A stretch of 64,000 nucleotides of DNA from Pseudomonadota bacterium (GTDB lineage Bacteria; Pseudomonadota; Gammaproteobacteria; Steroidobacterales; Steroidobacteraceae), in assembly GCA_039800965.1 (NCBI GenBank), contig JBDLPS010000221.1, positions 5,877 to 69,876 on the forward strand, read 5' to 3'. The notes under the pieces were generated by a model. That model was not told where the DNA came from. It did no database searches and worked only from the letters and a program-made list of their open reading frames with translations. Of this stretch, positions 32,593 to 64,000 are shown one piece after another (the first letter of the stretch is position 1; the number at the start of each line of letters is the position of its first letter). Position numbers and translations under genes: made by a program.

Positions 32593-32892
32593 TCATTTTC
32601 CGAACAGCCTTTCCAGTTCGGACCTGGCGGCTGCCGCCGCATCGTCCGTACCGCCCTTGAAGGCGCCTGACACCGGCCGGTAGTGGTCGCAGAAGTTGGC
32701 GCGTTCCTTGTCGCGGACTTCCTCCACCGTCGGCTCGCGGCACTGCTGGTACGCCGTACGGTCGTAGAGTGCGCAGAGCCGGCAGCAGTGCAGGTCCGCT
32801 CCGCAGGCGTGGCAGCGTTCGATGCGCCCGAAGGGCAATGCCAACGCGGCCAGCGAGGCTCCGCACTTCCAGCAGCCGATGTCATGCGCCAT
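32593..32892 (-). CDS. Cys-rich (9 Cys) zinc-ribbon-like small protein
   Basis: 99 aa with CWKC (C7/C10), CHAC (C27/C30), CCRLC (C36/37/40), C51 and C68. Its start overlaps the stop of the upstream UvrA-like gene by 11 nt. Confidence 0.6.
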   Translation of the reverse strand: MAHDIGCWKCGASLAALALPFGRIERCHACGADLHCCRLCALYDRTAYQQCREPTVEEVRDKERANFCDHYRPVSGAFKGGTDDAAAAARSELERLFGK

Positions 32893-45437: not shown

Positions 45438-46622
45438 ATGCGCTTCAGGGTCAAAGCCATCGGCCCGGCGCGGGATGTGGTGTCCTGTGTCATCGAGGCG
45501 GCGGACGAGGGTGACGCGCGGCGCCAGGCGTCTGCTTCGGGCCTCGCGCCGTTGTCCGTCGCGCGCGAACGCACGCTGGCCTTCGGGGTGGCGCGCGGCC
45601 GGCTGGATCTCGTGACCTTCAGCCAGGAGCTCGTGGCCCTGGTCGAGGCGGGGCTCTCCCTCGTCGAATCCATCGAGACGCTCGCCGAGAAGGAAGCCAA
45701 TCCGGTGGTGCGCCGATCCATGGAACAGATCCTCGCGAGGCTCCGTGAAGGACGCACGCTGGGGGCGGCGCTCGCCGAACACCCGGCCCTGTTCCCGCCA
45801 CTCTATGTGTCCACGGTCAGGGCCAGCGAGCGCACCGGCGCGCTGCGGGAATCGCTGCTGCGTTTCGTGGCCTACCAGAAGCAGGTCGATGTACTGCGCA
45901 AGAGCCTCGTCAATGCCTCCATCTACCCGGCGGTGCTGTGCGTCGCCGGTCTGCTGGTCGTCGGATTCCTCATGGGTTACGTCGTGCCGCGTTTCAGCGC
46001 GCTGTACGAGGACATGGGCAGCGGCCTGCCATTCGCCTCGCGCATGCTCATGCGCTGGGGCCGCTTCATGGATGCGCATGCGATGGGCATGCTCGTCGGC
46101 GTCGTGGCGCTGGTCGCCGGCGCCGTCTACGTGTTCACCCGCGCATCGTTCCGGGCCGCGATCGGCGCGCGCATCGCACGGATCCCGCATCTTGGCGAAC
46201 GGATCCGCATCTACCAGCTGGCACGCCTGTACCGGACGATCGGCATGCTGCAGCGGGGCGGCACACCGATGGTGACCGCGATGCGCATGTCGGACGGCCT
46301 TCTGGGCGCCGAACTGCGCGAACCCTTCGAACGTTCCATCCGCTGGGTGCGGGAAGGCCGCTCCGTGGCCGATGCCATGGAAGAAGCCGGACTGACCACG
46401 CCCGTGGCGACGCGCATGCTCCGCGTGGGCGAGCGCAGCGGCAACATGGGCGAGATGATGGAGCGCATCGCCGCGTTCTACGACGAGGAACTCGCGCGCT
46501 GGGTGGGCTTTGTCACGCGTCTCGTCGAACCGCTGCTGATGAGCGTCATCGGCATCGCCATCGGTGTCATCGTCGTGTTGATGTACTTCCCCATCTTCGA
46601 GCTCGCGGGGAGCATCCAGTGA
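45438..46622 (+). CDS. gspF: GspF/PilC-family inner-membrane platform protein
   Basis: 394 aa with two T2SSF-type repeats (FSQELVALVEAGLSL...; LARLYRTIGMLQRGGTPM...) and three TM segments. Confidence 0.88.
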   Translation: MRFRVKAIGPARDVVSCVIEAADEGDARRQASASGLAPLSVARERTLAFGVARGRLDLVTFSQELVALVEAGLSLVESIETLAEKEANPVVRRSMEQILARLREGRTLGAALAEHPALFPPLYVSTVRASERTGALRESLLRFVAYQKQVDVLRKSLVNASIYPAVLCVAGLLVVGFLMGYVVPRFSALYEDMGSGLPFASRMLMRWGRFMDAHAMGMLVGVVALVAGAVYVFTRASFRAAIGARIARIPHLGERIRIYQLARLYRTIGMLQRGGTPMVTAMRMSDGLLGAELREPFERSIRWVREGRSVADAMEEAGLTTPVATRMLRVGERSGNMGEMMERIAAFYDEELARWVGFVTRLVEPLLMSVIGIAIGVIVVLMYFPIFELAGSIQ

Positions 46623-48286: not shown

Positions 48287-49070
48287 CGTGATCGCCGTCC
48301 ATCTTTCCCCCGGCCGCAGCGCGATGGTCCGCGAGGGCAGGGGGCTCCGGCCCGCGCCTGCCGTCCATGACGCCTGGGTTGCCGGTGATGCGCAGGCTGC
48401 CGACTGGAACCCCGTGCTCGATGCGCTCGATGCACGGCTCGAGGACGTCGCAAGCCGCGGTGCCGCGGTATCTGTGGTCATCGGCGACGCCTGGGTGCGT
48501 TACGTGGCCGTCCCCGCTTCCGCGCAACTGCTTCGCAATGCCGAGCGGCTGGCGCACGCCCGCCATCTGTTCACTGAAACGCTGGGTGAGTCGGCTGCCG
48601 ACTGGGATGTCGCGCTTGCCACGAACTGGCCCGGCGCGCCGACCATCGCCTGCGCCATGCCACGGGAACTCGTCGAAGGTCTGCGTGCGGGCCTGGCGCG
48701 ACATGGCTGTCGCCTGGTATCGCTGCTGCCGCAGCTCGTTGCTGCGTACGGCACCTGGCGTCGAACCTTGCCGGACCGTGGTTTCTGGTTCGCCTCGGTG
48801 TCGGACACGGCTTTGTCTGCCGTGCACGTCGGCGCATCGGGTTTCGATGCCGCCTACAGCCTCCGTTCCGGTGTTGCATGGCGGGAGGACTTCCGTCGGC
48901 TGCGTCGCCTGCATGAACTCGGGGGTGGCGCGAGCGGTGAGCCGGCTTTCGCCGATGTGCCGTCCGTGTTGCACGGTAAAGAGGAGGCCGGGTGCACCCT
49001 GCTGGCGGATGCGACGGCATCGCGCGACCTCAAGGGTCGCTTGATGCTGTGGCGGAGGCAGGAGGCATGA
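48267..49070 (+). CDS. Hypothetical assembly protein in the GspL-cytoplasmic / PilM position
   Basis: GTG start with a GAGGAGG RBS, overlapping gspE by 20 nt. 267 aa with no TM helix. I see no recognisable motif; the assignment is by position only. Confidence 0.5.
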   Translation: MSPRWRDVIAVHLSPGRSAMVREGRGLRPAPAVHDAWVAGDAQAADWNPVLDALDARLEDVASRGAAVSVVIGDAWVRYVAVPASAQLLRNAERLAHARHLFTETLGESAADWDVALATNWPGAPTIACAMPRELVEGLRAGLARHGCRLVSLLPQLVAAYGTWRRTLPDRGFWFASVSDTALSAVHVGASGFDAAYSLRSGVAWREDFRRLRRLHELGGGASGEPAFADVPSVLHGKEEAGCTLLADATASRDLKGRLMLWRRQEA

Positions 49071-49591
49071 GCGCCCCGCGTTTCGAAATGGATTTCGCCC
49101 GCCGGCCTTACCGAGGTGGCGCCGCCGGCGTCCTGTTCGCCGTGCTGGGTGTGCTGCTGCTGGCCCTGACGCTTGCCTGGCAGCAGCGGCTGGATACGCG
49201 TCTGGCCGGGTTGGAACTGCGCAGCGCCGACTTGCAGCGCCGCCAGCAGGCCGCCGGATCGGCACCGCCGGTCGCCGGCCTGCAGCGCGCGCCACGTACC
49301 GCGACCTTGCTGGCGGTGCCTTGGTCGCCGTTGCTCGCCGGGCTCGAAAAGGCCAGCGCACAGCAGCGCGCGGACGTGGCGATACTCGCCATCGAACCCG
49401 ATGTCGCGCGACGCCGACTCAAGCTGTCGGGCGAGGCCCGCAATTTCAATGCCGTCGTGGAATACGTCGGGCGCCTGCAACGCATGAAATCGTTGCGACA
49501 TCCGATGCTCGAATCACATGAGATCCGGCTGGACGACGAGTACAAGCCGGTGCGCTTCCAGCTGACCGCCGAATGGGTGGACGCGCCATGA
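49067..49591 (+). CDS. Bitopic membrane protein in the PilN / GspL-TM position
   Basis: ATGA overlap with the upstream gene. It has a short cytoplasmic N-terminus and a single TM helix (GVLFAVLGVLLLALTLAW). A coiled-coil-like segment (LAGLELRSADLQRRQQ) follows. Confidence 0.55.
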   Translation: MSAPRFEMDFARRPYRGGAAGVLFAVLGVLLLALTLAWQQRLDTRLAGLELRSADLQRRQQAAGSAPPVAGLQRAPRTATLLAVPWSPLLAGLEKASAQQRADVAILAIEPDVARRRLKLSGEARNFNAVVEYVGRLQRMKSLRHPMLESHEIRLDDEYKPVRFQLTAEWVDAP

Positions 49592-50133
49592 CCTTGCAGG
49601 TCCGGATTTCACCGGCGCGACTGGTGGCTGTTGTCGAACAGGTGCTGCGCTCGGCCGGCCTGCCGCTGGTTGCCGGCGCCTGCCTGGTCGTTGCGGCGGC
49701 GGGCATCCTCGGCCTGCGGACGTTGCCGACGCGTGCTGCCATCGCGGCGCTCGACGGTCGCCTGCAGCAGCAGGTCGCTGCAGCCCGGGCGTTGCCGGCA
49801 CCGGCCAAGGCCGCCAAGGCGCAGGCACTGCCGCTGCGCGACCAGGCGCCACAGGTCGTCGAGCGCATCATGCGCGAAGCCGTCGCCGCCGAGGTCGATC
49901 TGGCGAGCGCCAAGTATGAATTCGTGGCGGCGCGTGACGGGATGCTGGCCCGCTATGCCATGACTTTCCCGGTGCATGCTTCGTACCCGAAGTTGCGCCG
50001 CTTCATCGACAAGGTGCTCGCGGGCGAGCCGTCCGTGGCCATCGAATCGCTGCGCATCGAGCGCAAGTCGATCGGCGTGAAGACGGTCGATGCCGAACTC
50101 CGCCTGTCGCTCTTCCTCGGGGAGGGGCAGTGA
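49588..50133 (+). CDS. Bitopic membrane protein in the PilO / GspM position
   Basis: ATGA overlap at 49588; an alternative ATG is at 49573. It has a single TM helix (LPLVAGACLVVAAAGILGL). The periplasmic domain ends VDAELRLSLF, a ferredoxin-like PilO/GspM-type pattern. Confidence 0.55.
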   Translation: MTLQVRISPARLVAVVEQVLRSAGLPLVAGACLVVAAAGILGLRTLPTRAAIAALDGRLQQQVAAARALPAPAKAAKAQALPLRDQAPQVVERIMREAVAAEVDLASAKYEFVAARDGMLARYAMTFPVHASYPKLRRFIDKVLAGEPSVAIESLRIERKSIGVKTVDAELRLSLFLGEGQ

Positions 50134-50654
50134 TGTCGCCGGCCCTCCGCTTGCGATTGCTGCTGGCCGGCGCCGCGATCGTCGCGGCCTACGTGTTCCT
50201 GGTGCCGTCGCCGGAGGATGCCTCGGTGGTTGAACCGGTCGCGGCCAGCGCTTCGTCCCGGCGTGCCCCGGTCCCTGCCGGGCGCGCCGCGGATGCGCGG
50301 GCTGCAACGTTCACCCGGCGCGACGCGCCATCGGACGATGCGGAGGCTTTCTTCGACGGCCAGACGTGGTTCGTGCCGCCGCCACCGCCACCGCCACCGC
50401 CACCGCCGCCGCCACCGCCGCCGCCACCACCACCCACGGCGCCGCCGTTGCCCTTCAAGGCCATCGGCAGCCTGGAACCGGTGGGCGCGCCCGCCGTGGT
50501 GTTCCTGCTGCGGGGCGAAAAACTCTACGACGTCCACGTGGGAGACACGCTGGACGCCGTGTACACGGTCGATTCGTTCGACAACAACACGCTGACCCTG
50601 ACCTACAAACCGCTGAACGTGCAGCAGACGCTGACGATCGGAGACGCGCGGTGA
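50130..50654 (+). CDS. Bitopic protein in the PilP / GspC position with a 20-residue polyproline tract
   Basis: N-terminal TM helix is LRLLLAGAAIVAAYVFLV. V-P20-TAPPLP is followed by a beta-rich approximately 70-aa C-domain (FKAIGSL...VVFLLRGEKLYDVHVGDTL...TLTY). That domain resembles the secretin-binding HR/PilP fold. Confidence 0.55.
   Translation: MMSPALRLRLLLAGAAIVAAYVFLVPSPEDASVVEPVAASASSRRAPVPAGRAADARAATFTRRDAPSDDAEAFFDGQTWFVPPPPPPPPPPPPPPPPPPPPTAPPLPFKAIGSLEPVGAPAVVFLLRGEKLYDVHVGDTLDAVYTVDSFDNNTLTLTYKPLNVQQTLTIGDAR
50376..50435 (+). repeat. 60-nt CCG/CCA proline-codon microsatellite (P20)
   Basis: I counted 20 consecutive Pro codons by hand: ccg ccg cca ccg cca ccg cca ccg cca ccg ccg ccg cca ccg ccg ccg cca cca cca ccc. 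The first half is an almost pure (CCGCCA)n hexamer. Confidence 0.95.
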
Positions 50655-53113
50655 ATCGAAACCATACTGGGACTGCGGTCCTGCTGGCCTTCGCGGCCTT
50701 GTTCCTGGCTTCCTGCACCGGTGCGTCCTCCCTGCACCGCGATGGCATGGGTGGCGTCCGCAAGGGTGCCTACGAAGAAGGCCTGCAGAAGTTGCAGCAG
50801 GCCATCGCCAAGGAGCCCGGCAACGTCGAATACCGCCTCGACCTGCGCCGCCAGCAACAGGCAGCGGTTGCGGCGCTGCTCGACGAAGGCGATGCCGCGC
50901 GCGCCACCGGCAATGCCGCGGCAGCCGAGAAATCCTATCGCCGCGTACTGTCGATCGAAGCCGCCAATGTGCGTGCCGCCGCCGGAATCGAGGGACTGCG
51001 TGCCGACCAGCGCCATGCGCAGGCCGTCGTCGACGCGCAGCAGGCCTTGCAGCGGGGCGAGATGGAGCGCGCGGATGCGCTGGTCCGCAAGGTGCTGATG
51101 GAGAACCCGTCGCACGCGCCGGCGCAGGCGCTGGCCGCGCGGCTCGAAGCGTCGCGGCCCGCCAATGCGGTGCCTCGCCTGCGCAGTCGTGACAACCGTC
51201 CGGTGACCCTGCAGTTCCGGGATGCGCAGACCAAGATGATCTTCGAAGTGCTGTCGCGGCAAACCGGCATCAACTTCATCTTCGACAAGGACGTGAAGAC
51301 CGACGGCCGCACCACGATCTTCGTCCGCGATGTCGCGGTCGAGCAGGCAATCGACCTGATCCTCGGACAGAACCAGCTGGCCCGCCAGGTGCTGTCCGAC
51401 AACCTCGTGATGGTCTACCCGAACACCGCTGCCAAGCAGAAGGATTACCAGGACCAGCTCGTCCGCACGTTCTACCTGAACTCCGCGGCGCCCAAGGACG
51501 TCGAGAACCTCCTCAAGACCGTGCTCGGTGCGAAGGCGCTCGTCGTCAACGAACGCGCCAATGCGATCGTGATGCGCGACACGCCGGAAGTGGTGCGCAT
51601 GGCCGAGAAGCTCGTGGCATCGGTCGACCTGGCCGAGCCCGAGGTCATGCTGGAGGTCGAGGTGCTCGAGGTGTCCCGCAGCCGGCTGCAGCAGCTGGGC
51701 ATCCTGTATCCCGGCAGCGCGAAATTCAGCGCGCCGGAAGCCCTGATCGTCAACGACATCGCACGGCTCAACGGCTACAGCATCAACGTCTCGCAGCTGA
51801 GCGCGACCGTGGACGTGCTCAAGACCAACGGCAATTCCAACGTGCTGGCGAGTCCACGGATCCGCGCGCGCAACAAGGAAAAGGCCAAGGTCCTCATCGG
51901 CAGTCGCGTGCCGGTCATCACGACCGCGGCGAGCTCGTCGGGCAACGGTGGCGTCATCAACAATACCCAGGTGCAGTACCTGGAGGTCGGCCTGACGCTC
52001 GACGTCGAACCGACGATCTATCCAACGAACGACGTGGCCATCAAGGTCAACCTCGAGGTCAGCTCGATCACCAACCGCGTGACGGTCGGCCAGACCGTGG
52101 CCTACGAGATCGGCACGCGCAACGCATCCACGCTCCTGCAGTTGCGCGATGGCGAGACCCAGATCCTCGCCGGCCTCATCCGCGACAGCGAGACGCGCGA
52201 CGCGACCAAGATCCCCGTGTTGGGCGACATCCCGGTGCTCGGTCGCCTGTTCGGCGACCACACCTCGAAGCGCGACAAGACCGAGGTGGTGTTGTCGATC
52301 ACGCCGCGGCTGGTCCGCCCGGCGATTCGTCCGTCCACCAACACCACCGAGTTCTGGTTCGGCACGGAAGGCCGCAACGGACCGCCGTTGTCGGCTGCGC
52401 CCATCCAGGGCGGGAGCCCTGCGCCGGTGCTGACGGCACCGAGCGCGCCCGCGCCCGCCCGTCCTGCGCCAGCCGCCGGCGCGGCCCCGGTGGCGCCCCA
52501 GGCGACACCCCCCGTTGCCGCTGCGCCAGCAGAGGTGCAGGCCGATGCCGCCGTCGCAACCGTTGCCGCAGCGCCGGACGCACCGCCGCCGGATGTCTCC
52601 GCACCGCTGCCCGCGCCCCCGGCGGACGCGCCGGCCGGGACCGGTCGCTTCAACCGCTTCCGCGGCGCGCCCGCGCGCCCGTCCGCCGCGGCGGCAGTGT
52701 CGCAGCCCGCAGCCGGTTTGCAGGCCCAGGCCAGCGGACCTGCCACGGTGCACATGGGCGAGGAGTTCACCGTCGCCGTGCAGCTCAACGCGCCACAGGG
52801 CGTGCCGCGCGTGCGCGCGCAGTTGCGCTTCGACGTCGCCGGTTTCGAATTCCTGGGCGCCGAGCCCGGTGCGTTCCTGTCGAGCGCCGAGGCCTCGCGC
52901 GTGGCGACTTCCGGTGGCGGCATGCAGCTTGATGCGAACGCCAGCGGCGACCAGCTCCTCTCCGGGAGCGGGGAACTCATGCGCGTGCGCTTCAAGGCCC
53001 TGCAGGCACGCCCGCGAGCGACCTTCGCCGGCCAGGTCAGCGTCCCCTCTGAATCCGGCGCGCCGGGCCCTTCGGGCACCATCATGCCCTTCGACATGGC
53101 GGTCCTGCCCTAG
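50651..53113 (+). CDS. Lipidated TPR - secretin - Ala/Pro linker - cohesin-like fusion protein (GspD/PilQ family)
   Basis: GTG 50651 overlaps the upstream stop (GTGA). Lipobox is FLASC. A TPR-like helical region spans about nt 50762-51147, followed by N0/N1-type domains (VTLQFRDAQTKMIFEVLSRQTGINFIFD). The secretin core is NVLASPRIRARNKEKAKVLIGSRVPVIT...VVLSITPRLV. An approximately 120-aa Ala/Pro-rich linker leads to a C-terminal beta module. The 915-aa track ORF is a run-on. Confidence 0.88.
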   Translation: MNRNHTGTAVLLAFAALFLASCTGASSLHRDGMGGVRKGAYEEGLQKLQQAIAKEPGNVEYRLDLRRQQQAAVAALLDEGDAARATGNAAAAEKSYRRVLSIEAANVRAAAGIEGLRADQRHAQAVVDAQQALQRGEMERADALVRKVLMENPSHAPAQALAARLEASRPANAVPRLRSRDNRPVTLQFRDAQTKMIFEVLSRQTGINFIFDKDVKTDGRTTIFVRDVAVEQAIDLILGQNQLARQVLSDNLVMVYPNTAAKQKDYQDQLVRTFYLNSAAPKDVENLLKTVLGAKALVVNERANAIVMRDTPEVVRMAEKLVASVDLAEPEVMLEVEVLEVSRSRLQQLGILYPGSAKFSAPEALIVNDIARLNGYSINVSQLSATVDVLKTNGNSNVLASPRIRARNKEKAKVLIGSRVPVITTAASSSGNGGVINNTQVQYLEVGLTLDVEPTIYPTNDVAIKVNLEVSSITNRVTVGQTVAYEIGTRNASTLLQLRDGETQILAGLIRDSETRDATKIPVLGDIPVLGRLFGDHTSKRDKTEVVLSITPRLVRPAIRPSTNTTEFWFGTEGRNGPPLSAAPIQGGSPAPVLTAPSAPAPARPAPAAGAAPVAPQATPPVAAAPAEVQADAAVATVAAAPDAPPPDVSAPLPAPPADAPAGTGRFNRFRGAPARPSAAAAVSQPAAGLQAQASGPATVHMGEEFTVAVQLNAPQGVPRVRAQLRFDVAGFEFLGAEPGAFLSSAEASRVATSGGGMQLDANASGDQLLSGSGELMRVRFKALQARPRATFAGQVSVPSESGAPGPSGTIMPFDMAVLP
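52736..53110 (+). other. Cohesin-like C-terminal module of the secretin
   Basis: GPATVHMGEEFTVAVQLNAPQGVPRVRAQLRFDVAGFEFLGAEPGAF...SGSGELMRVRFKAL follows the cohesin pattern. That pattern is G-x-F-x-V-x-V, then a hydrophobic x-F-x-hydrophobic-x-hydrophobic beta-strand stretch as in cohesin (here LRFDVAGF), then G-x-G-x-L-x-x-V-x-F-K. The call is by eye only. Confidence 0.5.
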
Positions 53114-53133
53114 GGCCCCGCTGCACGCGCGCC

Positions 53134-53616
53134 ATGGCACCGCATCGCACCGCTTCCGGGTTCACGCTCATCGAACTCGTCATCACCGTGGCGATCGTCG
53201 CCCTGCTGGCGACGGCCGCCGTGCCGCTTGCCGGGGTGGCGATCCAGCGTGGCAAGGAAGCGGAGCTGCGGTCGGCGCTGCGCGAGATTCGTGGCGCGAT
53301 CGATGCCTACAAGTCGGCGGGCGAGCAGGGGAGCATCCTGGTGGATGCCGATGCGTCAGGTTATCCGCCGGACCTGCGCACGCTCGTGGCGGGCGTCGTC
53401 GATGCCCGCAGTCCCAAGGGCGTGAAACTGTATTTCCTGCGCCGAATTCCGCGCGATCCGTTCTTTCCGGACGGCAGCGCGCCGGCGGAGCAGACCTGGG
53501 GATTACGCAGCCATTCGAGCCCGCCAGACAGGCCGGAACCCGGCGTGGATGTGTTCGACGTCCATTCGTTCTCCAACCAGCGAGGCCTGAACGGAGTGCC
53601 CTACCATGAGTGGTAA
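53134..53616 (+). CDS. Pseudopilin (prepilin-type N-terminal methylation domain)
   Basis: Cleavage motif is SG|FTLIELVITVAIVALLA with Glu at +5. 160 aa. Confidence 0.8.
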   Translation: MAPHRTASGFTLIELVITVAIVALLATAAVPLAGVAIQRGKEAELRSALREIRGAIDAYKSAGEQGSILVDADASGYPPDLRTLVAGVVDARSPKGVKLYFLRRIPRDPFFPDGSAPAEQTWGLRSHSSPPDRPEPGVDVFDVHSFSNQRGLNGVPYHEW

Positions 53617-54501: not shown

Positions 54502-54745
54502 ATCGTCGCGACGCGGTCCGGAACTGCATCACATAAGTTAAATGGAAGAGGGGAATTCCTACCCCTCTGCATAGGGAATACACCCCACGAGGGGTTGCTT
54601 CTTCCCACCTCCGGCGCCGATGTCGTCCGACTGACGCCACAAGCCTTCGTTTCGCAATATGACGCCATGCGCGAAAACCTTTTTCGCGCCGCATTTCATG
54701 TTGAAGAGGCAGTGGGTCCCGAAGGGGCCCTGTTTGGAGGCTCAG
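54502..54745 (+). promoter_or_regulatory. Structured, lower-GC intergenic leader or promoter region upstream of the giant gene
   Basis: By hand count, nt 54521-54600 are about 49% G+C against roughly two-thirds elsewhere. Three hairpins are present: 54547-54569 (agagggg-N9-cccctct), about 54582-54595 (acccc-acga-ggggt) and 54669-54689 (gcgcgaaaa-cct-ttttcgcgc, a 9-bp perfect stem). A GGAGG RBS sits at 54736-54740. Confidence 0.45.
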
Positions 54746-57700
54746 ATGTCCGGTTCGCGTTTCCTGCGCAGTGTTCTCGCCGCCACGCTCGTGGTCTTCG
54801 GAGGTCTTGGCCTCGCCGAAGCCGCGCCCGTGACCCTGAAGGTCGTCAGCGCGAGGGCGGAGTCCCGGTGGACCAACCCGTCCACCCAGGCCGTCACCGG
54901 CATCAGCAAGGGCGCTGTAGTCACGCACTACAAGTACCTCATCAACGTCGACAATTCGGGCGACACCTCGACGCAGCGTTCGCCCGCGCTCGGCACGGGT
55001 TGCAACCCGGCCGATGCGGGTTACCCCGACAGCTGCAAGTGGACCTCCATCGCGGGCACTGCCTCGTTCGCGCCGGTCTACACGCAGGGCACGCAGGCGG
55101 ATTTCGCCACCGCCATGAACATCCCGGACGGCCGCTACCTGATCTCGGTGCTTGCGCCGGGCTTCAAGCTCGATGGCCGCCACTTCAAGGTCGCCAACGG
55201 CATCGCCACCTGGGAAGGCAAGTCCGGCGCGGCGCCGGCTTCCGAGGTGCTGGTCGAGATGCAGCCGTGGCCGTTGCCGGACGCGCAGATCCAGGCGGCG
55301 GTCTTCGAGGACATCTCGCCGGTCAACAGCGCGCCGGATCTTCCGGTGGAGCATGGTCTCGCGGGTTTCCAGGCGCACATCACCGATTACATCGGTGAAG
55401 TGACCACCGACATCTATGGCGCACCGCTGTGCGACACCGGCGCCTGCCTCAGCGCCTGCTATGTCGTCTTCAACGGCCAGGACATCGGCACGGTGCAGCC
55501 GCTCGACGCGGCCGGCCGCTGCCCGACGGATCCCCCGACCGCCAGCACCGCGATGTATTACTGCGATGGCCCGAACGGCAGCACGGCGCCCTACATGGTC
55601 GCGCGCAGCGACACGGCGCCGTACAACCGCTTCGCCTGTCCTTCCGCGCTGGGCAGCGTGGCCGTGAAGCAGGGCCCCGTCCCTGATGCGGCCGCCCTGC
55701 ACACGGGCGTCATCCAGGGCAAGGTCAAGGTGCCGAACATCGGCCCGAACCGTTACGCGCTGGCCGTCACGCCGCCGGACGGTTACTTCTGGGCCCAGAC
55801 GACCACGCTCGAAGGCAACAGCGACTGGGACGCCTGGGTGATGGAAGGCGCAACCGGTCTCGATACCGAGCTTGCCGTCGCCGGCGAGCCCTTCCCGGGC
55901 ATCATCTTCGGCTACGTCCCGCAGCCGGGCACGTCGACCGCGCAGACGGTGCGCACGTATTCGGCAGTCAGCTGCCGTCGCGGCGTGACGAACTGTCCCT
56001 ACAACATCTATCCGACGCTGACCGGCACTTCCACGATCACGGGTGTCGTCGAGGCCGTGAAGATCTTCGTCCCCGCGACCGGTGGCATCGCCGGCCTGCC
56101 CGGCCAGATCTGGGGCGGCATGCAGGGTGCCAAGATCGACAAGCCGATCGAGTACCCCTGGGTCACGCTCACCGACCTGTCCAATGGCGATTCGATCGTC
56201 TGGGCCGGCCGCGGTGACGTGCAAGGTCGCTTCTCCATCCCGAACGTCCCGGCCGGCACCTACACCCTGACCTGGTGGGACCAGCCGCAGAACGAGATCC
56301 TCGACCTCGTGAACGTCACCGTTCGCGCCGGCGAGACCGTCGACATGGGCATCCTGCCGCTGACCGGCTGGTGGACCGTCTTCGATGGCTATGTCTTCAA
56401 TGACGCCAACCGCAACGGCATCAAGGACGAGGGCGAGGCGGGCATCCCCAACTACACGTTGACGTTGCGCAAGCGCGAGAACTCGCAGATGGATCGCGGC
56501 ACGACTGCCGCCACCACCGATTCCAACGGCTATTACGTCTTCGAATCCGCCTATCCCATGACGCAGTGGCTGGTGATGGAGGCCTATGACGACCTCCATT
56601 ACACGACCGGCGTCACCTACCAGGCCGACAACCAGCCCGATCCGACCACGGTGATCGGTTCGGGCGTGGACGTCAGCGTGCATCCGATCATCGGCCTTTC
56701 AGGTCGCATCGACTGGGGCAAGCACATCTACGACGGCACCGGCACGAACGGCGTCGACCCGCGCAACGGCGGCATCGTCGGCAGCATCAGCTACGACACC
56801 ACCCGCAACGAAAAGGACCCGCGCTACGCGGCGGTGGAAGTCTGGCAGCCTGGCGTGCCGGACCTCACGGTCAAGCTGTGGAAGCCTGTCCCCTGCAACA
56901 CCCACGTGGGCACGCCTTGCAGCGCGGACCGTCGCTATGAGCTCGCGGCCGATGGCTCCTACGCCAAGGGCCTGCTGCTGAACACCTACCTGTCCGAGAC
57001 CTGGACGCGTCCGGCCGGCTGCACCGTCCGCAACGCCGATGGCACGCCCCTGGTGCACGGTGTCGATGAACAGGTGCTGCCGCTCGACGACACGCTGCCC
57101 TGCATCGAGGCGCCGCTGACGGGCATCCAGTTCGGCACCTACGCCACGGACCAGGGCACCCCTGACGCGAACTTCGGCGCTGCCGTCAACGGCAACTGGG
57201 GCTTCGGCGACGGTTGCCTCGTCTCGGGCTTCAACACGACGACCCAGGCCTGCAACAACGCGAGCGAACCGCTGGCCGCGCTGCCGGCTGCGAACTATCT
57301 GGTACAGGTCGACCTGCAGTCCCTCAAGGACGCGCAGGGTCGCCCGGTCTATCAGGTGACGCGCGAGGAAGACGTGAACGTGGCCGCCGGCGACGAGTTC
57401 GCCCCGGCCGTGCCGCCGCCGGCCTGCGTCGGCGCGCTGCATGTGGTCGACTCGTCCGGCAACGACGGCTACCTGACCGGTGCCGGCACGGCCCCTGCCG
57501 AGGGCCAGCAGCGTCCGCTCTGCGACGTGAAGCTCGTGACCCTTACCAATGGCAAGTCGGTCGCCCCGATGTTCAACGTCTTCACGGACGTTCCGCTCCC
57601 GGGTCGCCACTGGTTCATCATCATCGATGACCTGAACTTCTCCAGTAACCCGAAGTCCACGACCTTCGGCGAGAAGGCGGGCATTCCCTTCGCCCCGGTC

Positions 57701-60700
57701 GGCATCTACGATTTCACCAACCGTCTCGTGAAGACGGTGGAATCAGACTACAACGGCCTGGCTGACGTGCTGCTGCCGTCGACCAACCGCATCAACTGCC
57801 CGACGCCCTCCGGCGTCTGCGCGAACCTGTACCGTTACGTGGGCAACGACCCGGGTGTCCCGGGCCGCCTGAACACGAACTACAACCCGGCCTTCCGCAC
57901 CATCGCGGCCGAATTCGAAGTCCTGCCGGGCCTGATCGTGCCGGCGGACCTCGCGCCGAGCCAGGTCGGTGTCACCGTGCAGCTCCCGGGCTCGCAGGTG
58001 ACGACCAACCTGCAGTGCAAGGTCGAGGACGTCGCGCCCGAGCTGTACGCGGTGTCTCGCCCGTACGTGACGGTGGGCAACAACGCTAGCACGGCGCAGC
58101 GCCAGTTCATCATCTATGGCAAGGCCTTCGGTGCCGCCGTCGGCCAGGTGCAGCTGGATGGCACGGCCCTCACGGCCACTGCAGTGACCTGGACCAACAC
58201 GCAGATCACGGTCACGGTACCGACCAACACGACGCAGGGCCCGCGCCAGCTGACGATCCTTGCCGCCAACGGCAAGCGCACCGTCAACGGCCTGACGCTG
58301 CATGTGATGGGCAACACCTACGCGCCCCAGCTCTTCGAGGTGGGCCCGAACGTGGCCAATGCCCGCTATCGCCCCGCCGAGACGCTCCCGGAGACCGCAA
58401 ACCATGCCGTGCAGAACGCGCTGGATGACGCGGGCGTGTGGGTAGGCGCCGGCACCAACCGCACGGCCCTGGTCGTGGTCTACCCGAACACGCCGGCGGT
58501 GGGTTCGCGCCAGAACCCGCGCGGCGCCTATTACGAGAACCTGATCATCACCAGCCGCGTGAAGCTCCAGGGCGTCGGCCCGGGCAGCCCGGACGGCTCG
58601 ATCCGCGGTTCCATCCTCGATGGCAGTGCCTATGCCGGCGACAGCCCGGTCGCGACCGACTGGCGCGCTCGCCTGACGCAGTTCGGCACCTTCGACGCGA
58701 ACAACAACTTCATCCCCGGCTGGGCCGGCAACAGCGCAATCTATGACGGCGCCGTCATCACGCTGTACCTGCCGTCCCCGTCCTCGACGGTCCTGGCGGA
58801 GCGCCGCCAGGCCTTCCCGACGACCTACACTGCGGCCACGGCGCCCTCGATCGATGGCTTCGACATCCGCGGTGGCGACCAGCAGGGCTTCCCGACCAAC
58901 ATCAACGTGATCGGTGGCGGCCCCACGGGCCTTGCGCCCGGAGTGGTCACGCAGGGTGGCGCGATCTTCGCGAACGCCTGGGCGAACAATCTGCAGATCA
59001 CCAACAACACCGTGCAGAACAATGGCGGTGCCTACGGCACCCTGCGCCTCGGCACGCCCGACCTGACGGGCGCCGATCCCAGCAGCCATAACGGCAACGT
59101 GGTCATCGCGCACAACCGCGTGATCCTCAACGCCGGCACGAACCAGGCGGGTGGCATCGGCCTCTTCAACGGGTCCGACAACTACCAGATCGCCTTCAAC
59201 GACATCTGCGGCAACTTCTCGGCCGAGTACGGCGGCGGCATCAGCGTCGTCGGCTACAGCCCGGGCGGCCGCATCAACAACAACCGCATCTACTTCAACC
59301 GCTCCTACGACGAGGGTGGTGGCGTGATGATCGCGGGCGCCCTGCCGGCCAACGCGGCGACGCTGTCGCCGGGCTCGGGTGCCGTCGACATCTACGGCAA
59401 CCTCATCCAGGGCAACCTGTCGAACGACGACGGCGGCGGCATCCGCTTCCTGATGTCCGGCAACTTCCCGATGAACGTCTACAACAACTTCATCGTGGAC
59501 AACATCTCGACGCACGAGGGCGGCGGCATCAGCATCAACGATGCGCCGAACGTCCGCATCTACAACAACACGATCGCCAAGAACATCACGACGGCCACGG
59601 CGATCACCAGCACGGGCGTGCCGGCTCCCGCCGGTGTCTCGACCTCGCTGAACAGCGGCCTGCTGCAGGACACCCTGCCGGCCGGTTCGCCGCTGCACAG
59701 CAACCCGCTGCTGTTCAACAACCTGTTCTGGGACAACCGTGCCGGCACGCGCACGCTGGACCTGGTGGCCGGCATCGGGGCCGCGAACGACACCTCGCCG
59801 ATCGACTACTGGGACCTCGGCGTCTCGGACGATCCGACGGTTTCGCTCTCGCCCACGAACTCGCTCGTCCAGCAGGACGTGGCGCAGCATGCCTACACCA
59901 CCGATGCGTCCAACAAGACGACCGACCCTCGCTTCCTGACGCCGTATGACATCGGGGTGACGTTCAACGTCTGGCGCAACAACCCGGCCTTCCTGGGCGC
60001 CATCATGATCTCGGCGGACCTCCCGCCGTCGCTGATGGGCGACTTCCACCTGCGCGGCAACTCGCCGGCGGTGAACGTCGCGGCGAACAGCAAGGCGCTG
60101 CCGTCCTACCAGGTCGTCGGCACCGCGACGAGCGTCGCGGCGCCCTCGAACGACATCGACGGCGACACGCGTCCGGCGCTCGGTGCCCGCGACATCGGCG
60201 GCGACGAAATGCTGCCGGTCTCGGCCGACCTGCGCATCACCAAGACGGACGGCGTGACCGCTGCTTCGCCGGGCGATGTCCTGCACTACACCATCACCGT
60301 GACCAACAGCTCGGCGAACTTCGTCTGGGGTGCCTGGGTGCGTGACACCATCCCGGCCGCCCTCACGAACGTGAGCTGGACCTGCGTGGCCTCCACCGGC
60401 TCGGCCTGTGCCGCCGTCAGCGGCAGCGGGAACATCTCCGAGTACGTGGACCTCGCTCCCGCCGGCACCGTCACCTACGTGCTGACGGGCACGGTCAGCG
60501 GTGCGGTGGGTTCGACGCTGTCGAATACCGCGACGGTCACTCCGTCGCTGGGCACGACGGATTCGAACACGACCAACAACTCGGCGACGGATACGGACCA
60601 GATCGCCGGCACGGCTGACCTCGAGGTCTCGATCTCGACGGACAAGTCGCGCTACAACCGCAACGAGAACATCCGTTACACGATCGTCGCCAAGAACAAC

Positions 60701-61351
60701 GGCCCTGCGGACGTCATCGGCGCCCGCCTGACCGACCTGTTCCCGACGGCGCTCACCGGCGTGACCTGGACCTGTACGGCCACGGGCGGCGCGGCCTGCG
60801 TGCCGGCCAGCGGCACGGGTAACCTGAACGCCAAGACCATCAACCTGCCGATGGGTGGCATCGTGACCCTGGTCGCGACGGGCCGCATCAACTCGAACGC
60901 CGCGACCATCAACAACACCGTCAGCATCGCGCTGCCGGCGGGTGCGCCGTTCGTCGACCCGAACATGGCCAACAACACCGCGACGGCCAGCGTCACGGTC
61001 AACGGCCACCACGTGTCGTCGATCACCGGTTCGGGCACGCGCACCAGCACCACGCGCTGGACGGCGAACGCCACGATCACGATCCACAACCGCGACCACC
61101 TGGCTGCGGCGGGCGTGACGGTGACGGGCACCTGGCGCAACAACGGTGGTGGCAACACCACGACCGTGACCTGCACGACGAATGCGTCGGGCCAGTGCAC
61201 GGTGACCCGCACCAACATCTCGACGACGGAAGGTTCGTACACCTTCACGGTCACCAACCTGACCGTGCCGGCCTCCGCCGGGGTGTCGAACTACCAGAAC
61301 GCGATCAACGAGGTCGGTGCGACGGCCAGCGTGAGGGTGGTCCGGCCGTAA
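54746..61351 (+). CDS. Giant (2201 aa) secreted multidomain protein: Ig/CarboxypepD_reg/SdrD-B-like repeats, IPT/TIG, right-handed parallel beta-helix, tandem DUF11
   Basis: Signal peptide is MSGSRFLRSVLAATLVVFGGLGLAEA. The SdrD-B-like segment is FDGYVFNDANRNGIKDEGEAGIPNYTLTL...TDSNGYYVF (about 56370-56600). IPT/TIG spans about 58030-58315. Beta-helix repeats are NNTVQNNGGAYG, NNRIYFNRSYDEGGGVMI, GNLSNDDGGGIRF and DNISTHEGGGISINDA, with a DIDGDTRP...DIGGDE cap (about 58530-60210). Two DUF11-type repeats begin DLRITKTDG and DLEVSISTDK (about 60227-61000). The track ORF start at 54659 is an in-frame extension. Confidence 0.85.
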   Translation: MSGSRFLRSVLAATLVVFGGLGLAEAAPVTLKVVSARAESRWTNPSTQAVTGISKGAVVTHYKYLINVDNSGDTSTQRSPALGTGCNPADAGYPDSCKWTSIAGTASFAPVYTQGTQADFATAMNIPDGRYLISVLAPGFKLDGRHFKVANGIATWEGKSGAAPASEVLVEMQPWPLPDAQIQAAVFEDISPVNSAPDLPVEHGLAGFQAHITDYIGEVTTDIYGAPLCDTGACLSACYVVFNGQDIGTVQPLDAAGRCPTDPPTASTAMYYCDGPNGSTAPYMVARSDTAPYNRFACPSALGSVAVKQGPVPDAAALHTGVIQGKVKVPNIGPNRYALAVTPPDGYFWAQTTTLEGNSDWDAWVMEGATGLDTELAVAGEPFPGIIFGYVPQPGTSTAQTVRTYSAVSCRRGVTNCPYNIYPTLTGTSTITGVVEAVKIFVPATGGIAGLPGQIWGGMQGAKIDKPIEYPWVTLTDLSNGDSIVWAGRGDVQGRFSIPNVPAGTYTLTWWDQPQNEILDLVNVTVRAGETVDMGILPLTGWWTVFDGYVFNDANRNGIKDEGEAGIPNYTLTLRKRENSQMDRGTTAATTDSNGYYVFESAYPMTQWLVMEAYDDLHYTTGVTYQADNQPDPTTVIGSGVDVSVHPIIGLSGRIDWGKHIYDGTGTNGVDPRNGGIVGSISYDTTRNEKDPRYAAVEVWQPGVPDLTVKLWKPVPCNTHVGTPCSADRRYELAADGSYAKGLLLNTYLSETWTRPAGCTVRNADGTPLVHGVDEQVLPLDDTLPCIEAPLTGIQFGTYATDQGTPDANFGAAVNGNWGFGDGCLVSGFNTTTQACNNASEPLAALPAANYLVQVDLQSLKDAQGRPVYQVTREEDVNVAAGDEFAPAVPPPACVGALHVVDSSGNDGYLTGAGTAPAEGQQRPLCDVKLVTLTNGKSVAPMFNVFTDVPLPGRHWFIIIDDLNFSSNPKSTTFGEKAGIPFAPVGIYDFTNRLVKTVESDYNGLADVLLPSTNRINCPTPSGVCANLYRYVGNDPGVPGRLNTNYNPAFRTIAAEFEVLPGLIVPADLAPSQVGVTVQLPGSQVTTNLQCKVEDVAPELYAVSRPYVTVGNNASTAQRQFIIYGKAFGAAVGQVQLDGTALTATAVTWTNTQITVTVPTNTTQGPRQLTILAANGKRTVNGLTLHVMGNTYAPQLFEVGPNVANARYRPAETLPETANHAVQNALDDAGVWVGAGTNRTALVVVYPNTPAVGSRQNPRGAYYENLIITSRVKLQGVGPGSPDGSIRGSILDGSAYAGDSPVATDWRARLTQFGTFDANNNFIPGWAGNSAIYDGAVITLYLPSPSSTVLAERRQAFPTTYTAATAPSIDGFDIRGGDQQGFPTNINVIGGGPTGLAPGVVTQGGAIFANAWANNLQITNNTVQNNGGAYGTLRLGTPDLTGADPSSHNGNVVIAHNRVILNAGTNQAGGIGLFNGSDNYQIAFNDICGNFSAEYGGGISVVGYSPGGRINNNRIYFNRSYDEGGGVMIAGALPANAATLSPGSGAVDIYGNLIQGNLSNDDGGGIRFLMSGNFPMNVYNNFIVDNISTHEGGGISINDAPNVRIYNNTIAKNITTATAITSTGVPAPAGVSTSLNSGLLQDTLPAGSPLHSNPLLFNNLFWDNRAGTRTLDLVAGIGAANDTSPIDYWDLGVSDDPTVSLSPTNSLVQQDVAQHAYTTDASNKTTDPRFLTPYDIGVTFNVWRNNPAFLGAIMISADLPPSLMGDFHLRGNSPAVNVAANSKALPSYQVVGTATSVAAPSNDIDGDTRPALGARDIGGDEMLPVSADLRITKTDGVTAASPGDVLHYTITVTNSSANFVWGAWVRDTIPAALTNVSWTCVASTGSACAAVSGSGNISEYVDLAPAGTVTYVLTGTVSGAVGSTLSNTATVTPSLGTTDSNTTNNSATDTDQIAGTADLEVSISTDKSRYNRNENIRYTIVAKNNGPADVIGARLTDLFPTALTGVTWTCTATGGAACVPASGTGNLNAKTINLPMGGIVTLVATGRINSNAATINNTVSIALPAGAPFVDPNMANNTATASVTVNGHHVSSITGSGTRTSTTRWTANATITIHNRDHLAAAGVTVTGTWRNNGGGNTTTVTCTTNASGQCTVTRTNISTTEGSYTFTVTNLTVPASAGVSNYQNAINEVGATASVRVVRP

Positions 61352-61390: not shown

Positions 61391-62875
61391 ATGACACAGC
61401 GTTCAGACGACCAGGCCCGGACCCGCCGCTACTTCCTCAAGCTGGCGGGCGGCTCCACGCTCGCCCTGGCGGGTACCGGCCTCCTGCCCTTCAACCGGCT
61501 GCTCGGCCCCGCGGCCATGCAGTCGGCGGAGGCCGCGGTCACCACCAATCCGGCGCCGGACCTCTTCATGGCCGGCACGGACGGCTGGATCAGCCTGCCG
61601 AAGAACCCGGCCCTGCAGTCGGCGTACTTCGGCGCGCAGACCCATCCGGACAATTTCGTCCCGGATGCGAAGTTCAGCACCTACATCTTCGGTTTCCGTG
61701 ACGTCACGGGCCTGACGGACGCGCAGCGCGCGGGGCAGAAGATGAAGGCCCAGCACAATGCGCCGCTGTTCTGGCTCGACGAGGTCGATCCGGCCAATCC
61801 GAAGGCCAAGCAGTTCCGCGTGAACCTGATGAACCTCGGCCTGGCGATGCGCCCCGACCTGTTCGATGCGCATACGATCCACTACCACGGTTTCCGCAAC
61901 GTGCTGCCGATCTTCGACGGCGAGCCGCAGGGTTCCGTCGCCGTGACGGCCGGCCGCGTCTTCCAGTACGTGTACCGTCCGCGCGACCCGGGCACCTACA
62001 TGTGGCATTGCCACGTGGAAGAGATCGAGCACATCCACATGGGCATGACCGGGCCGCTCTTCGTCCGTCCGAAGCAGAACGGCACGAGCTACACCTGGCA
62101 GGGCAAGACCTACGACAAGTTCGTCTACAACGACGGCGACGGTTCCACCGGCTACGACCGAGAGTTCGCGATGTTCATGTCGGAGGTCTGGTGCGATTCG
62201 CACTGGGCCGACTCCCATATCGAGTTGCCGGAGTGGAGCGACTACCGCGCCGATTTCTGCCTGCTCAACGGTCGCGTCTACCCGGACACCATTGCGCCGA
62301 ACTCGCTGATGAACATGCCGGCCAACGCCGCGGTCGCCAAGAACCTCCATTCCCTGCCGGTGCAGCGCGACGCGAGCGGCGACCTGCTGTCGCGTCCCGG
62401 CCATGAGCACCTCCAGTACCAGCCGATGTCGGCGCTGGTGGAGTGCAATGCCGGTGATCGCGTCCTGCTGCGCTTCGCCAACCTGGGTTTCCTGGAATCG
62501 GCGATGACGCTGGCCGGCATCCGCATGACCGTCGTCGGCAAGGACGCGACGCACATGCGGGGTCGTCCGGACAACACCAATCAGCGTGCCGACACCAGCT
62601 ACGACGCCAGCACCCTGAGCTTCGGCCCGGGCGAGAGCATCGACGCGCTCTTCACCGCGCCGGCGTTCTCGGGCGGTTCCGGCAGTTCGGGCCAGGGCTA
62701 CGACGTCTACCTGCTGTTCGACCGTGCCTACGAGCGCACGAACAACAAGGCGGCGGGCGAGGGCGGGCTGCCTTACGGCGGTCGCCAGACCGAGGTCCGC
62801 GTCTACCCGGCCGGTACGGTGCAGCAGCAGTTGCTGCCGAACACCAACCCGCATCTGAACAGCGACGTCTACTGA
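61391..62875 (+). CDS. Tat-exported multicopper-oxidase-like protein 1 (cupredoxin domain 1 with ligands + copper-less domain 2)
   Basis: An AAGGAG RBS lies 8 nt before the ATG. The twin-arginine leader is TRRYFLKLAGGSTLALAG. HYHG is at nt 61880-61891 and WHCHVEEIEHIHMGM has its HCH at 62006-62014. The rest resembles an MCO domain 2 (LLNGRVYPDT...GDRVLLRFANLG...TVVGKDA). Confidence 0.8.
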   Translation: MTQRSDDQARTRRYFLKLAGGSTLALAGTGLLPFNRLLGPAAMQSAEAAVTTNPAPDLFMAGTDGWISLPKNPALQSAYFGAQTHPDNFVPDAKFSTYIFGFRDVTGLTDAQRAGQKMKAQHNAPLFWLDEVDPANPKAKQFRVNLMNLGLAMRPDLFDAHTIHYHGFRNVLPIFDGEPQGSVAVTAGRVFQYVYRPRDPGTYMWHCHVEEIEHIHMGMTGPLFVRPKQNGTSYTWQGKTYDKFVYNDGDGSTGYDREFAMFMSEVWCDSHWADSHIELPEWSDYRADFCLLNGRVYPDTIAPNSLMNMPANAAVAKNLHSLPVQRDASGDLLSRPGHEHLQYQPMSALVECNAGDRVLLRFANLGFLESAMTLAGIRMTVVGKDATHMRGRPDNTNQRADTSYDASTLSFGPGESIDALFTAPAFSGGSGSSGQGYDVYLLFDRAYERTNNKAAGEGGLPYGGRQTEVRVYPAGTVQQQLLPNTNPHLNSDVY

Positions 62876-62885
62876 CCGCTGCCCC

Positions 62886-64000
62886 ATGAGGACTTTCCCG
62901 ATGAATCTTTCGATCCTCAGTCCCTTCCGCCGCAGCCTCGTGCTCGGCATGGCGGTCGCTGCCGCGGGCCTGCTCGCACCGGCGCAGCAGGCCGTCGCCG
63001 CCGGCACCTCGAAAACCGGCGTGGTGTGCACGACGGGTGCCGCCGGCGCACCGGTGTTCACGCTCACCGCGAAGGAAGGCTACATCCAGCTGCCGGACGG
63101 CAACACGATGTACATGTGGAGCTATGCCTCCGGCGGTTCCGACTTCCAGTACCCGGGCCCGGTCCTGTGCGTGAACGAAGGTGACACCGTCACCGTCGTC
63201 CTGAGCAACCAGCTGGCCGAGGATGTGTCGATCATGTTCCCCGGCCAGGAAGGCGTGCTGGCCAATGGTTCGGCCGCCCAGCCCCAGGGCAGCGGCGCCG
63301 GCCTGACGTCCCTCACCAACGTCGCTCCGGTCGGCGGCAGCGTGACGTACAGCTTCGTCGCGTCGAGGGCGGGCACCTTCGTCTACGAGAGCGGCACGGA
63401 ACCGCAGAAGCAGGTCCGCATGGGCCTCTTCGGTATGCTGATCGTGCGGCCGGCCGGCCACGCGGACCAGTTGAATGCCCGCAGCGACAGCCAGTTCACC
63501 TCCGCCAGCGCGACCACCGTGAACGAGGAGTTCATGGTCCAGCTGTCGGAAATCGATCCCTACCAGCACTGGGCGGCGGAGGCGGGGGAAACCTTCGACC
63601 TGTCGACCTATCATCCGCGCTACTGGCTGATGAACGGCCGCGGCTTCCCGGACACCATCGCCGACAACCACTCGGCGTTCCTGCCCGCACAGCCTTACGG
63701 TTCGCTGGCGCGCATCAATCCCTGGGATCCGATCAAGCATCCGCTGCCGGGTGCGATCCGCTACATGAACCTCACGACGACGGAGATCCCGTTCCATCCG
63801 CACGGCCAGAACGGCACGGTGGTGGGTCGCGACGGCGCCGCGTTGCAGACCCCGGACGGCAAGGATGCGTCCTTCGAGAAGTTCGTGGTCAACATCGGCC
63901 CGGGCCAGACCTATGACGTGCTGTTCCAGTGGTACGACGCGGAAGCCTACAGTCCCACCGCGGCCGCCGGCAGCGCGCATGAGTTTCCGGTCGCCATGCC
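62886..64000 (+). CDS. Multicopper-oxidase-like protein 2, 3' end beyond the window (not in the supplied ORF track)
   Basis: My own translation is MRTFPMNLSILSPFRRSLVLGMAVAAAGLLAPAQQAVA|AG..., with an alternative ATG at 62901. A cupredoxin domain 1 pattern is GDTVTVVLSNQLAEDVSIMFPGQ and GTFVYESG...MGLFGMLIVRP. An L3-like FHPHG is at nt 63795-63803. The frame is open to nt 64000. Confidence 0.75.
   Translation, partial: MRTFPMNLSILSPFRRSLVLGMAVAAAGLLAPAQQAVAAGTSKTGVVCTTGAAGAPVFTLTAKEGYIQLPDGNTMYMWSYASGGSDFQYPGPVLCVNEGDTVTVVLSNQLAEDVSIMFPGQEGVLANGSAAQPQGSGAGLTSLTNVAPVGGSVTYSFVASRAGTFVYESGTEPQKQVRMGLFGMLIVRPAGHADQLNARSDSQFTSASATTVNEEFMVQLSEIDPYQHWAAEAGETFDLSTYHPRYWLMNGRGFPDTIADNHSAFLPAQPYGSLARINPWDPIKHPLPGAIRYMNLTTTEIPFHPHGQNGTVVGRDGAALQTPDGKDASFEKFVVNIGPGQTYDVLFQWYDAEAYSPTAAAGSAHEFPVAM

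Follow-up and report, generated by a model that had tools for sequence, protein, structure and literature searches.

Two-domain multicopper oxidases (MCOs) form homotrimers; wherever domain 1 of one chain meets domain 2 of the adjacent one, a trinuclear, O2-reducing copper cluster is held between them. In every MCO of known structure, to our knowledge, the trinuclear cluster is formed by a single chain or at the contact of identical ones. For six-domain MCOs that have a single cluster, an origin from trimers of two-domain ancestors was reportedly proposed by Nakamura and Go. The stretch analysed here, termed the window, is 64,000 nucleotides (nt) long (assembly GCA_039800965.1, contig JBDLPS010000221.1, positions 5,877 to 69,876, forward strand) and comes from a Pseudomonadota bacterium of the family Steroidobacteraceae. 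At its end it carries two adjacent genes, designated MCO1 and MCO2, whose MCO-like products divide the copper ligands of such an enzyme between them, and a third paralogue, MCO3, follows. The three products probably form a heterotrimeric ring with one type-1 copper site and a single trinuclear cluster, the latter predicted at the interface of MCO1 domain 1 and MCO2 domain 2.

The features of the two genes in the window are as follows:

61391..62875, + strand: MCO1, an open reading frame (ORF) of 494 amino acids (aa) with two cupredoxin domains, domain 1 live and domain 2 ligand-free
61421..61441, + strand: twin-arginine translocation (Tat) motif T-R-R-Y-F-L-K of MCO1, with R12 and R13 invariant
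61871..61891, + strand: HTIHYHG of MCO1, residues H161, H164 and H166, aligned with HTIHWHG of 3G5W
62006..62047, + strand: HCHVEEIEHIHMGM of MCO1, residues H206 to M219, with the spacing of the 3G5W motif
62901..64000, + strand: MCO2, running past the window end, with the first 366 of its 441 codons in the window
63228..63248, + strand: SIMFPGQ of MCO2, the degenerate first HxH position of domain 1, aligned with TIHFHG of 9CCK and HTIHYHG of MCO1
63795..63803, + strand: H299-P-H301 (FHPHG) in domain 2 of MCO2, predicted to be the third HxH pair of the cluster, 99-100% conserved

MCO1 is preceded by an AAGGAG Shine-Dalgarno sequence, and more than 3,400 homologues of the protein were found. 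The pattern [ST]RRxF[FLV]K is present in the leader of 22/22 homologues, and the match of the leader to TIGR01409 is weak (12.5 bits). By the motif S/T-R-R-x-F-L-K, MCO1 is a predicted Tat-exported cuproenzyme. Its Pfam matches are confined to residues 159-229 and comprise the pair of PF07732 (Cu-oxidase_3; 36.8 bits) and PF07731 (Cu-oxidase_2; 32 bits), both above the curated cut-offs. H161 is a predicted type-1 copper ligand, and H164 and H166 represent the first HxH pair of the predicted trinuclear cluster. Downstream, H206 and H208 are predicted cluster ligands, while C207, H214 and M219 would complete the type-1 site. In 79 MCO1 sequences H161, H164, H166, H206, C207, H208 and H214 are 100% conserved, and M219 is invariant in alignment A1, as are E210 and E213. 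The latter two follow the HCH motif and precede the type-1 His, with Asp at residue 211 in nearly all sequences; as a speculation, acidic residues beside the type-1 His may hint at a metal-cation substrate, as in ferroxidases.

A preliminary description of this DNA had placed the Tat leader, HTIHYHG and the HCH motif where they are listed above and had read a type-1-like Cys site into domain 1. Both points hold, as H161, C207, H214 and M219 align with the corresponding residues of 3G5W. The HCH-x5-H spacing, regarded there as aberrant, is the normal one in domain 1 of type-C two-domain MCOs, and 3G5W reads HCHVNVNEHVTMRGM. Domain 2 is copper-less, as had been supposed: no conserved His or His pair was identified after residue 276 in the 79 sequences, and T373 and A375 occupy the positions opposite H299 and H301 of MCO2 in the profile alignment. 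For a third cupredoxin domain there is neither room nor signal in MCO1 or MCO2. Four other residues of MCO1, H122, H271, H276 and C352, are 100% conserved in the 79 genomes and belong to neither the type-1 nor the trinuclear ligands; they could form an extra metal site, a substrate site or an interface. H271 and H276 are located within the inter-domain segment DSHWADSHIELPEW.

Full-length MCO2 (441 aa) was taken from contig L001:3694-5019, whose MCO1 (P0001) is 100% identical to MCO1 of the window. The two ORFs lie in different frames. MCO2 had been described as starting 10 nt after the MCO1 stop; the in-frame ATG at 62886 makes this possible but less likely, and the start is likely the ATG at 62901, 25 nt after the stop, which was preferred because of GAGGA 8 nt upstream and an identical start in the public gene call. 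The RR motif noted in the MCO2 leader is present in the window, but only 4/22 homologues have it, so that it is not a conserved Tat motif. As judged from sequence, the leader is Sec-type and MCO2 is not a conserved Tat substrate. In the part of MCO2 within the window, the Pfam matches cover residues 87-189 and 294-348 (the latter PF07731) and score 46.5 bits for PF07732 and 25.3 bits for PF07731, both above the curated cut-offs. Two conserved Cys pairs were found in the protein.

The domain-1 motifs of MCO2 had been called dead, and profile alignments uphold the register on which this depended. GTFVYESG aligns with the HCH position of domain 1, and YESGTEPQKQVRMG is placed on the HCH...H...M stretch. 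Since SIMFPG and YESGTEPQKQVRMG fall on ligand positions, the domain-1 ligands are truly lost. FHPHG is present at the place where it had been noticed, and a fourth HxH pair, H408-N-H410 (IISHNHALHQ), is encoded about 120 nt past the window end. In 76 MCO2 sequences H299, H301, H408 and H410 are 97-100% conserved. The full protein thus contains the C-terminal copper motifs that were to be looked for in it, the second of which is HNH and not L4. No Cys lies beside a His pair, and MCO2 therefore has no type-1 site. When 1.84 billion cluster representatives were searched with an MCO2 profile, 448 MCO2-like clusters had E below 1e-30. Among the best 150 of these, 70 full-length members have lost the ligands of domain 1 and kept those of domain 2, and a live domain 1 was seen in none.

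Among solved structures, 3G5W (from Nitrosomonas europaea) and 2ZWN, both type-C two-domain MCOs, come closest to MCO1 domain 1 and also to MCO2 domain 2. In the alignments of MCO1 domain 1, WHCHVEEIEHIHMGM is paired with YHCHVNVNEHVTMRGM, and HTIHYHG with HTIHWHG. A profile of MCO2 domain 2 alone matches domain 2 of 2ZWN (E=0.005) and of 3G5W (E=0.02) with both HxH pairs in register: FHPHG falls over HAMHSHG (2ZWN) and HAIHTHG (3G5W), and ISHNH over IFHDH. A direct profile alignment of MCO1 domain 1 with MCO2 domain 2 is not significant (E=0.34), and the solved type-C enzymes served as the common reference for their register. When whole family profiles of MCO1 and MCO2 were compared in hhalign, they aligned with a probability of 99.3% over 273 columns covering both domains, and HTIHYHG was paired with VSIMFPG, HCH..H..M with ESGTEPQKQVRMGL, and MTLAG with FHPHG. 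By this alignment the two proteins are paralogues, and each retains exactly the predicted ligand set that the other has lost.

Both MCO1 and MCO2 have two cupredoxin domains per chain, each aligning with the corresponding domain of 3G5W and 2ZWN, and they derive from the type-C two-domain branch of the MCO superfamily. The type-1 site (His, Cys, His and Met, with the Cys flanked by cluster His) is present in MCO1 only, as MCO2 and MCO3 have no Cys there. Type-C enzymes have all eight cluster His in one polypeptide, whereas here the set is complete only in MCO1 and MCO2 together. The sequences argue against a functional homotrimer with three clusters. The alternative raised in the preliminary description, a homotrimer of MCO1 with MCO2 as an accessory protein, is not supported either, as domain 2 of MCO1 has none of the four required His.

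Two other architectures were considered and rejected. In three-domain MCOs of the laccase, CueO or CotA kind, a chain of about 500 aa has motifs L1-L2 in its first domain and L3-L4, with HCH, in its third; MCO1 instead has HCH in domain 1 and no later motif, and in MCO2 HPH and HNH come without a Cys. A six-domain single-chain MCO does not fit the number of genes, which is three, or two in loci with an MCO2::MCO3 fusion, and no single-chain six-domain form was seen. The NCBIfam models of CueO, CopA and laccase score 17-38 bits against cut-offs of 479-559, and the NirK model is also far below its cut-off; because of these scores, neither protein is an ordinary member of the CueO, CopA, laccase or NirK families.

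The gene pair is widespread. When one genome per species was scanned, at least 335 species had an MCO1 relative, and 80 loci were examined in detail. The carriers belong to at least five phyla and include Gamma- and Betaproteobacteria, Chloroflexota, Actinomycetota, Myxococcota and Acidobacteriota; cultured ones include Methylobacter tundripaludum SV96 and strains of Cryobacterium, Intrasporangium, Humibacillus and Cellulomonas. MCO2 adjoins MCO1 in 76/78 loci with enough flank, and the remaining two carry fragmented copies; counting these, the pair occurs in 78/78, an obligate linkage. The genes are arranged in an operon with the order giant protein of about 2,000 aa, MCO1, MCO2, MCO3, small protein, in some cases CopCD, and subtilase, with intergenic gaps mostly of -4 to +40 nt. 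MCO3 was found in 71/71 loci, the giant protein upstream in 64/64, the small protein of about 166 aa in 56/66, and the S8 subtilase in 64/66. Protein identity in the family is 54-70% across loci.

This recurrence bears on the explanation that the split ligands are decaying remnants in non-functional paralogues, or result from mis-assembly or frameshift of one ordinary MCO gene. Several public gene calls in the family are visibly frameshifted (P0246, P0269, P0344), which would favour an artefact. However, the two genes are read in different frames and have a signal peptide and a ribosome-binding site each, and the same architecture recurs in 78 independent genomes at the protein identity given above and with 97-100% ligand conservation. 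Moreover, each protein has two cupredoxin domains, and joining them would not yield a normal three-domain MCO. The explanation is effectively refuted.

MCO3, of about 1,000 aa, is encoded next after MCO2, just past the window end. Its cupredoxin pair is N-terminal (about residues 130-440), has about 30% identity to MCO2 and matches PF07732 with 42.4 bits; the long C-terminal tail consists of immunoglobulin (Ig)-like, Big_13 and Y_Y_Y repeats. In 70 sequences no ligand position has a conserved His or Cys, and there is no conserved HxH. Natural MCO2::MCO3 fusions were found twice, as P0244 (884 aa, L086:1961-4615) and P0242 (1,156 aa, L087:5246-8716), each directly following an MCO1 gene within the usual operon. 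Frameshift read-through was excluded for both because they have a small conserved linker domain in common. The fusions are evidence of the Rosetta-stone type, suggesting that MCO2 and MCO3 belong to one assembly. In another protein, P0313 (696 aa), two tandem ligand-free cupredoxin pairs similar to that of MCO3 precede a dockerin-like C-terminus; the copper-less module thus also serves as a building block in other contexts.

From these data the following assembly is proposed. MCO1 and MCO2 would descend from a type-C two-domain MCO, each having lost a different half of the ligands. With cluster ligands coming from neighbouring chains, as in the known homotrimers, and with the ligands split in this way, only the interface of MCO1 domain 1 with MCO2 domain 2 can hold a cluster. 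MCO3 with its ligand-free cupredoxin pair probably fills the third place. The product would be a pseudo-trimeric ring of six domains that has one type-1 copper and one trinuclear cluster and in which three polypeptides reproduce the copper layout of ceruloplasmin. Electrons would pass from the substrate to the type-1 copper of MCO1 and over the H206-C207-H208 bridge to the inter-subunit cluster, where O2 would be reduced to water. MCO1 would be exported folded via Tat and MCO2 via its Sec-type leader; as the export routes differ, assembly and copper loading would take place after export, outside the cytoplasm. The loading could be helped by copper-handling genes found within the operon or close to it, namely CopC-CopD in Actinomycetota and occasionally SCO1/SenC. 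The preliminary description had already suggested an inter-subunit cluster in a heteromeric oxidase, which is supported by the ligand complementarity and the linkage, but its three-domain framing was wrong, and a heterotrimer is likelier than the heterodimer it had in mind. As the MCO3 paralogue is present in 71/71 loci and fused to MCO2 in some, the unit is likely a heterotrimer. The inter-subunit cluster between MCO1 and MCO2 is considered fairly probable, and the exact 1:1:1 ring with MCO3 somewhat less so.

In a variant of this assembly, MCO1 and MCO2 alone would be the catalytic pair, as a heterodimer or in a ring completed by another MCO1 or MCO2 chain, and MCO3 would stay outside the ring as an anchor or adaptor to the giant protein or to the surface via its Ig-like repeats. 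The long C-terminal tail of Ig-like, Big_13 and Y_Y_Y repeats is typical of surface adaptors, and the linkers in the MCO2::MCO3 fusions are long. However, MCO3 has a well-conserved cupredoxin pair paralogous to those of MCO1 and MCO2 and is never missing from the loci. Also, all two-domain MCOs known to us close a three-subunit ring (3G5W, 2ZWN, SLAC). An adaptor role of MCO3 outside the ring is therefore regarded as unlikely.

Several points weigh against the heterotrimeric ring. The invariant H122, H271, H276 and C352 of MCO1 are left unexplained by it. Its ring order puts the C-terminus of MCO2 away from the N-terminus of MCO3, and the fusions must therefore depend on long linkers (about 140-400 aa). 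An MCO1::MCO2 fusion is absent from the 80 loci and from the 150 best representatives of the MCO2 family; apparent MCO1/MCO2 overlaps were dismissed as longest-ORF artefacts in other frames, and P0344 and similar cases as frameshifted gene calls. Export of MCO1 by Tat and of MCO2 by Sec complicates assembly. AlphaFold2 monomers were of low confidence, with a mean predicted local distance difference test (pLDDT) score of 41.7 for MCO1 (alignment A1) and 44.2 for MCO2 (alignment A2), because the alignments are shallow (22 sequences, about 65% identity). Finally, support for the complex is entirely comparative, so that interaction, copper binding and activity are predictions. The complementary ligands and their conservation, the paralogy, the linkage in an operon and the MCO2::MCO3 fusions are shown, and it is from these that we infer physical assembly, 1:1:1 stoichiometry, copper content and oxidase activity.

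Two of these points, the different export routes and the missing MCO1-MCO2 fusion, would also fit proteins that act separately. MCO1 would then be a blue-copper carrier, its four extra His binding one type-2-like copper or nothing, and MCO2 a copper store, chaperone or sensor, with no cluster at all. Copper-less or partly liganded cupredoxin paralogues such as FtsP/SufI are known, which is in favour of this explanation. On the other hand, the eight His make up four HxH pairs at the exact cluster positions of type-C enzymes, and the H-C-H bridge that connects the cluster with the type-1 site shows 100% conservation. If the two halves never met, it would be hard to account for such strict complementarity and for their joint inheritance in at least five phyla. 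Separate action is considered quite unlikely, a little more so than an adaptor role of MCO3.

The genes upstream of MCO1 in the window are as follows:

54659..61351, + strand: giant secreted protein, 2,230 aa, with Pfam matches to SdrD-B-like, carboxypeptidase-regulatory-like, IPT and DUF11 domains
45938..53616, + strand: cluster similar to a type II secretion system (T2SS) or mannose-sensitive haemagglutinin (MSHA) pilus, by Pfam matches, directly upstream of the giant gene
45938-48286, + strand: ATPase of this cluster, by Pfam match
49573-50133, + strand: T2SS-M-like protein, by Pfam match
50366-53113, + strand: secretin with a C-terminal cohesin-like domain, the cohesin match being weak (E=4e-4)
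53134-53616, + strand: pseudopilin, by Pfam match

The core of the giant protein (about residues 50-1850, some 1,800 residues) is 50-66% identical across phyla and contains SdrD-B-like and IPT repeats, a beta-helix-like GGG repeat region and many invariant Cys and Trp. The C-terminal 380 aa or so vary between lineages and carry DUF11 repeats in the window version. In the PDB, neither the single sequence nor a 13-sequence profile matched anything but SdrD-B and IPT domains. The giant protein is likely a partner or scaffold of the MCO trio. The T2SS/MSHA-like cluster is a possible export route over the outer membrane, but the link is loose, as secretin genes are upstream in only two of the scanned flanks and absent in locus L004.

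The remaining parts of the operon were seen at L004:12733-18238 and L026:15762-21180. The small protein of about 166 aa (P166) is membrane-anchored and has a conserved VTAxGGLVDxR motif. As it belongs to no Pfam family and no His, Met or Cys motif is conserved in it, it was not called a copper chaperone. The S8 subtilase carries Ig/cadherin-like domains. In 19 loci the operon includes a CopC-CopD fusion, which in many actinobacterial operons is found between the small protein and the subtilase. In the scan of the flanks, two-component regulators alone recurred, in addition to a few SCO1/SenC and secretin genes, and no clue to the substrate was found there. The complex would work with the upstream giant protein and the downstream subtilase, probably at the cell surface or in the medium. 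A Caldilineaceae genome has two complete adjacent copies of the operon on contig JAWKOU010000001.1 (L073, 8231501-8252709; L077, 8250445-8271758), and several other metagenome-assembled genomes have two copies on separate contigs, e.g., L021 and L032, or L045 and L066.

Two further ORFs lie elsewhere in the window:

25901-28123, - strand: reprolysin-type (M12B) metalloprotease with a DUF11 domain like that in the tail of the giant protein
32882-38353, - strand: UvrA-like ORF, unusually long (1,823 aa), with Walker-type ATPase motifs along most of its length

Taken more broadly, the proteins may represent a widespread class of extracellular copper oxidases whose active site exists only in a heterotrimer of three two-domain paralogues, a living intermediate between homotrimeric two-domain and single-chain six-domain MCOs and a part of a larger machine with the 2,000-residue surface protein and the subtilase. 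This wider proposal is tentative, its chances being slightly short of even. The substrate of such an oxidase in bacteria of soil, sludge and freshwater might be a metal cation (Mn(II), Fe(II) or Cu(I)), or the enzyme might cross-link a surface polymer. If true, an obligate heteromer with ligands divided among paralogues would be a new assembly principle for the MCO family and would illustrate, in nature, how subunits become locked together through complementary degeneration after duplication. It would also be direct evidence for the origin of six-domain one-cluster MCOs from two-domain trimers. In that case, thousands of proteins deposited under the name "multicopper oxidase domain-containing protein" would be inactive when expressed alone, and genome-based counts of laccases or Mn oxidases would miscount these proteins. 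The idea of a split MCO is directly testable, since cultured carriers exist.

No description of a split-ligand heteromeric MCO was found in the full-text literature, a search that did not extend to subscription-only literature. The "heterotrimer" of Nitrosopumilus Nmar_1354 is a proteolytic variant of a homotrimer (PMC11761707). Among the known systems, the type-C two-domain MCOs (3G5W and the metagenomic mgLAC, 2ZWN) are similar to the proteins described here in having two domains, a type-1 site and two HxH in domain 1, the HCH-x5-H spacing and two Cys-free HxH in domain 2. They differ in that a single chain supplies all 12 ligands and the homotrimer has three clusters, whereas here the ligands are split between two gene products, the third paralogue has none, and at most one cluster per ring can be expected. 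In addition, MCO1 and MCO2 are 100-170 residues longer and have large insertions.

NirK, whose chains are among the best matches of MCO2 domain 1, is also a two-domain cupredoxin trimer with a catalytic copper ligated by His of two subunits, but it is a homotrimer with a mononuclear type-2 site of three His, while the four HxH pairs found here are characteristic of a trinuclear cluster. The Mnx complex (MnxE3F3G) of Bacillus and the iodide oxidase IoxA/IoxC of Iodidimonas are MCOs that purify with co-encoded operon products. MnxG carries all four copper-binding regions in one chain. So does IoxA, and SCO1/SenC and type II secretion (gsp) genes are located near the iox cluster (PMC9415286). In both of these systems the partners give no cluster ligands, whereas here no single chain can build the cluster.

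Similar in the predicted copper layout are the six-domain MCOs ceruloplasmin, hephaestin and the bacterial MnxG type, with a pseudo-threefold ring of six domains and a single trinuclear cluster at one interface; ceruloplasmin chains are also weak matches of MCO1 domain 1. Ceruloplasmin is a single chain with type-1 sites in domains 2, 4 and 6, of which the cluster-adjacent one is in the last domain. The predicted ring differs from it in comprising three chains, or two if MCO2 and MCO3 are fused, and in having a single type-1 site, which lies in a first domain.

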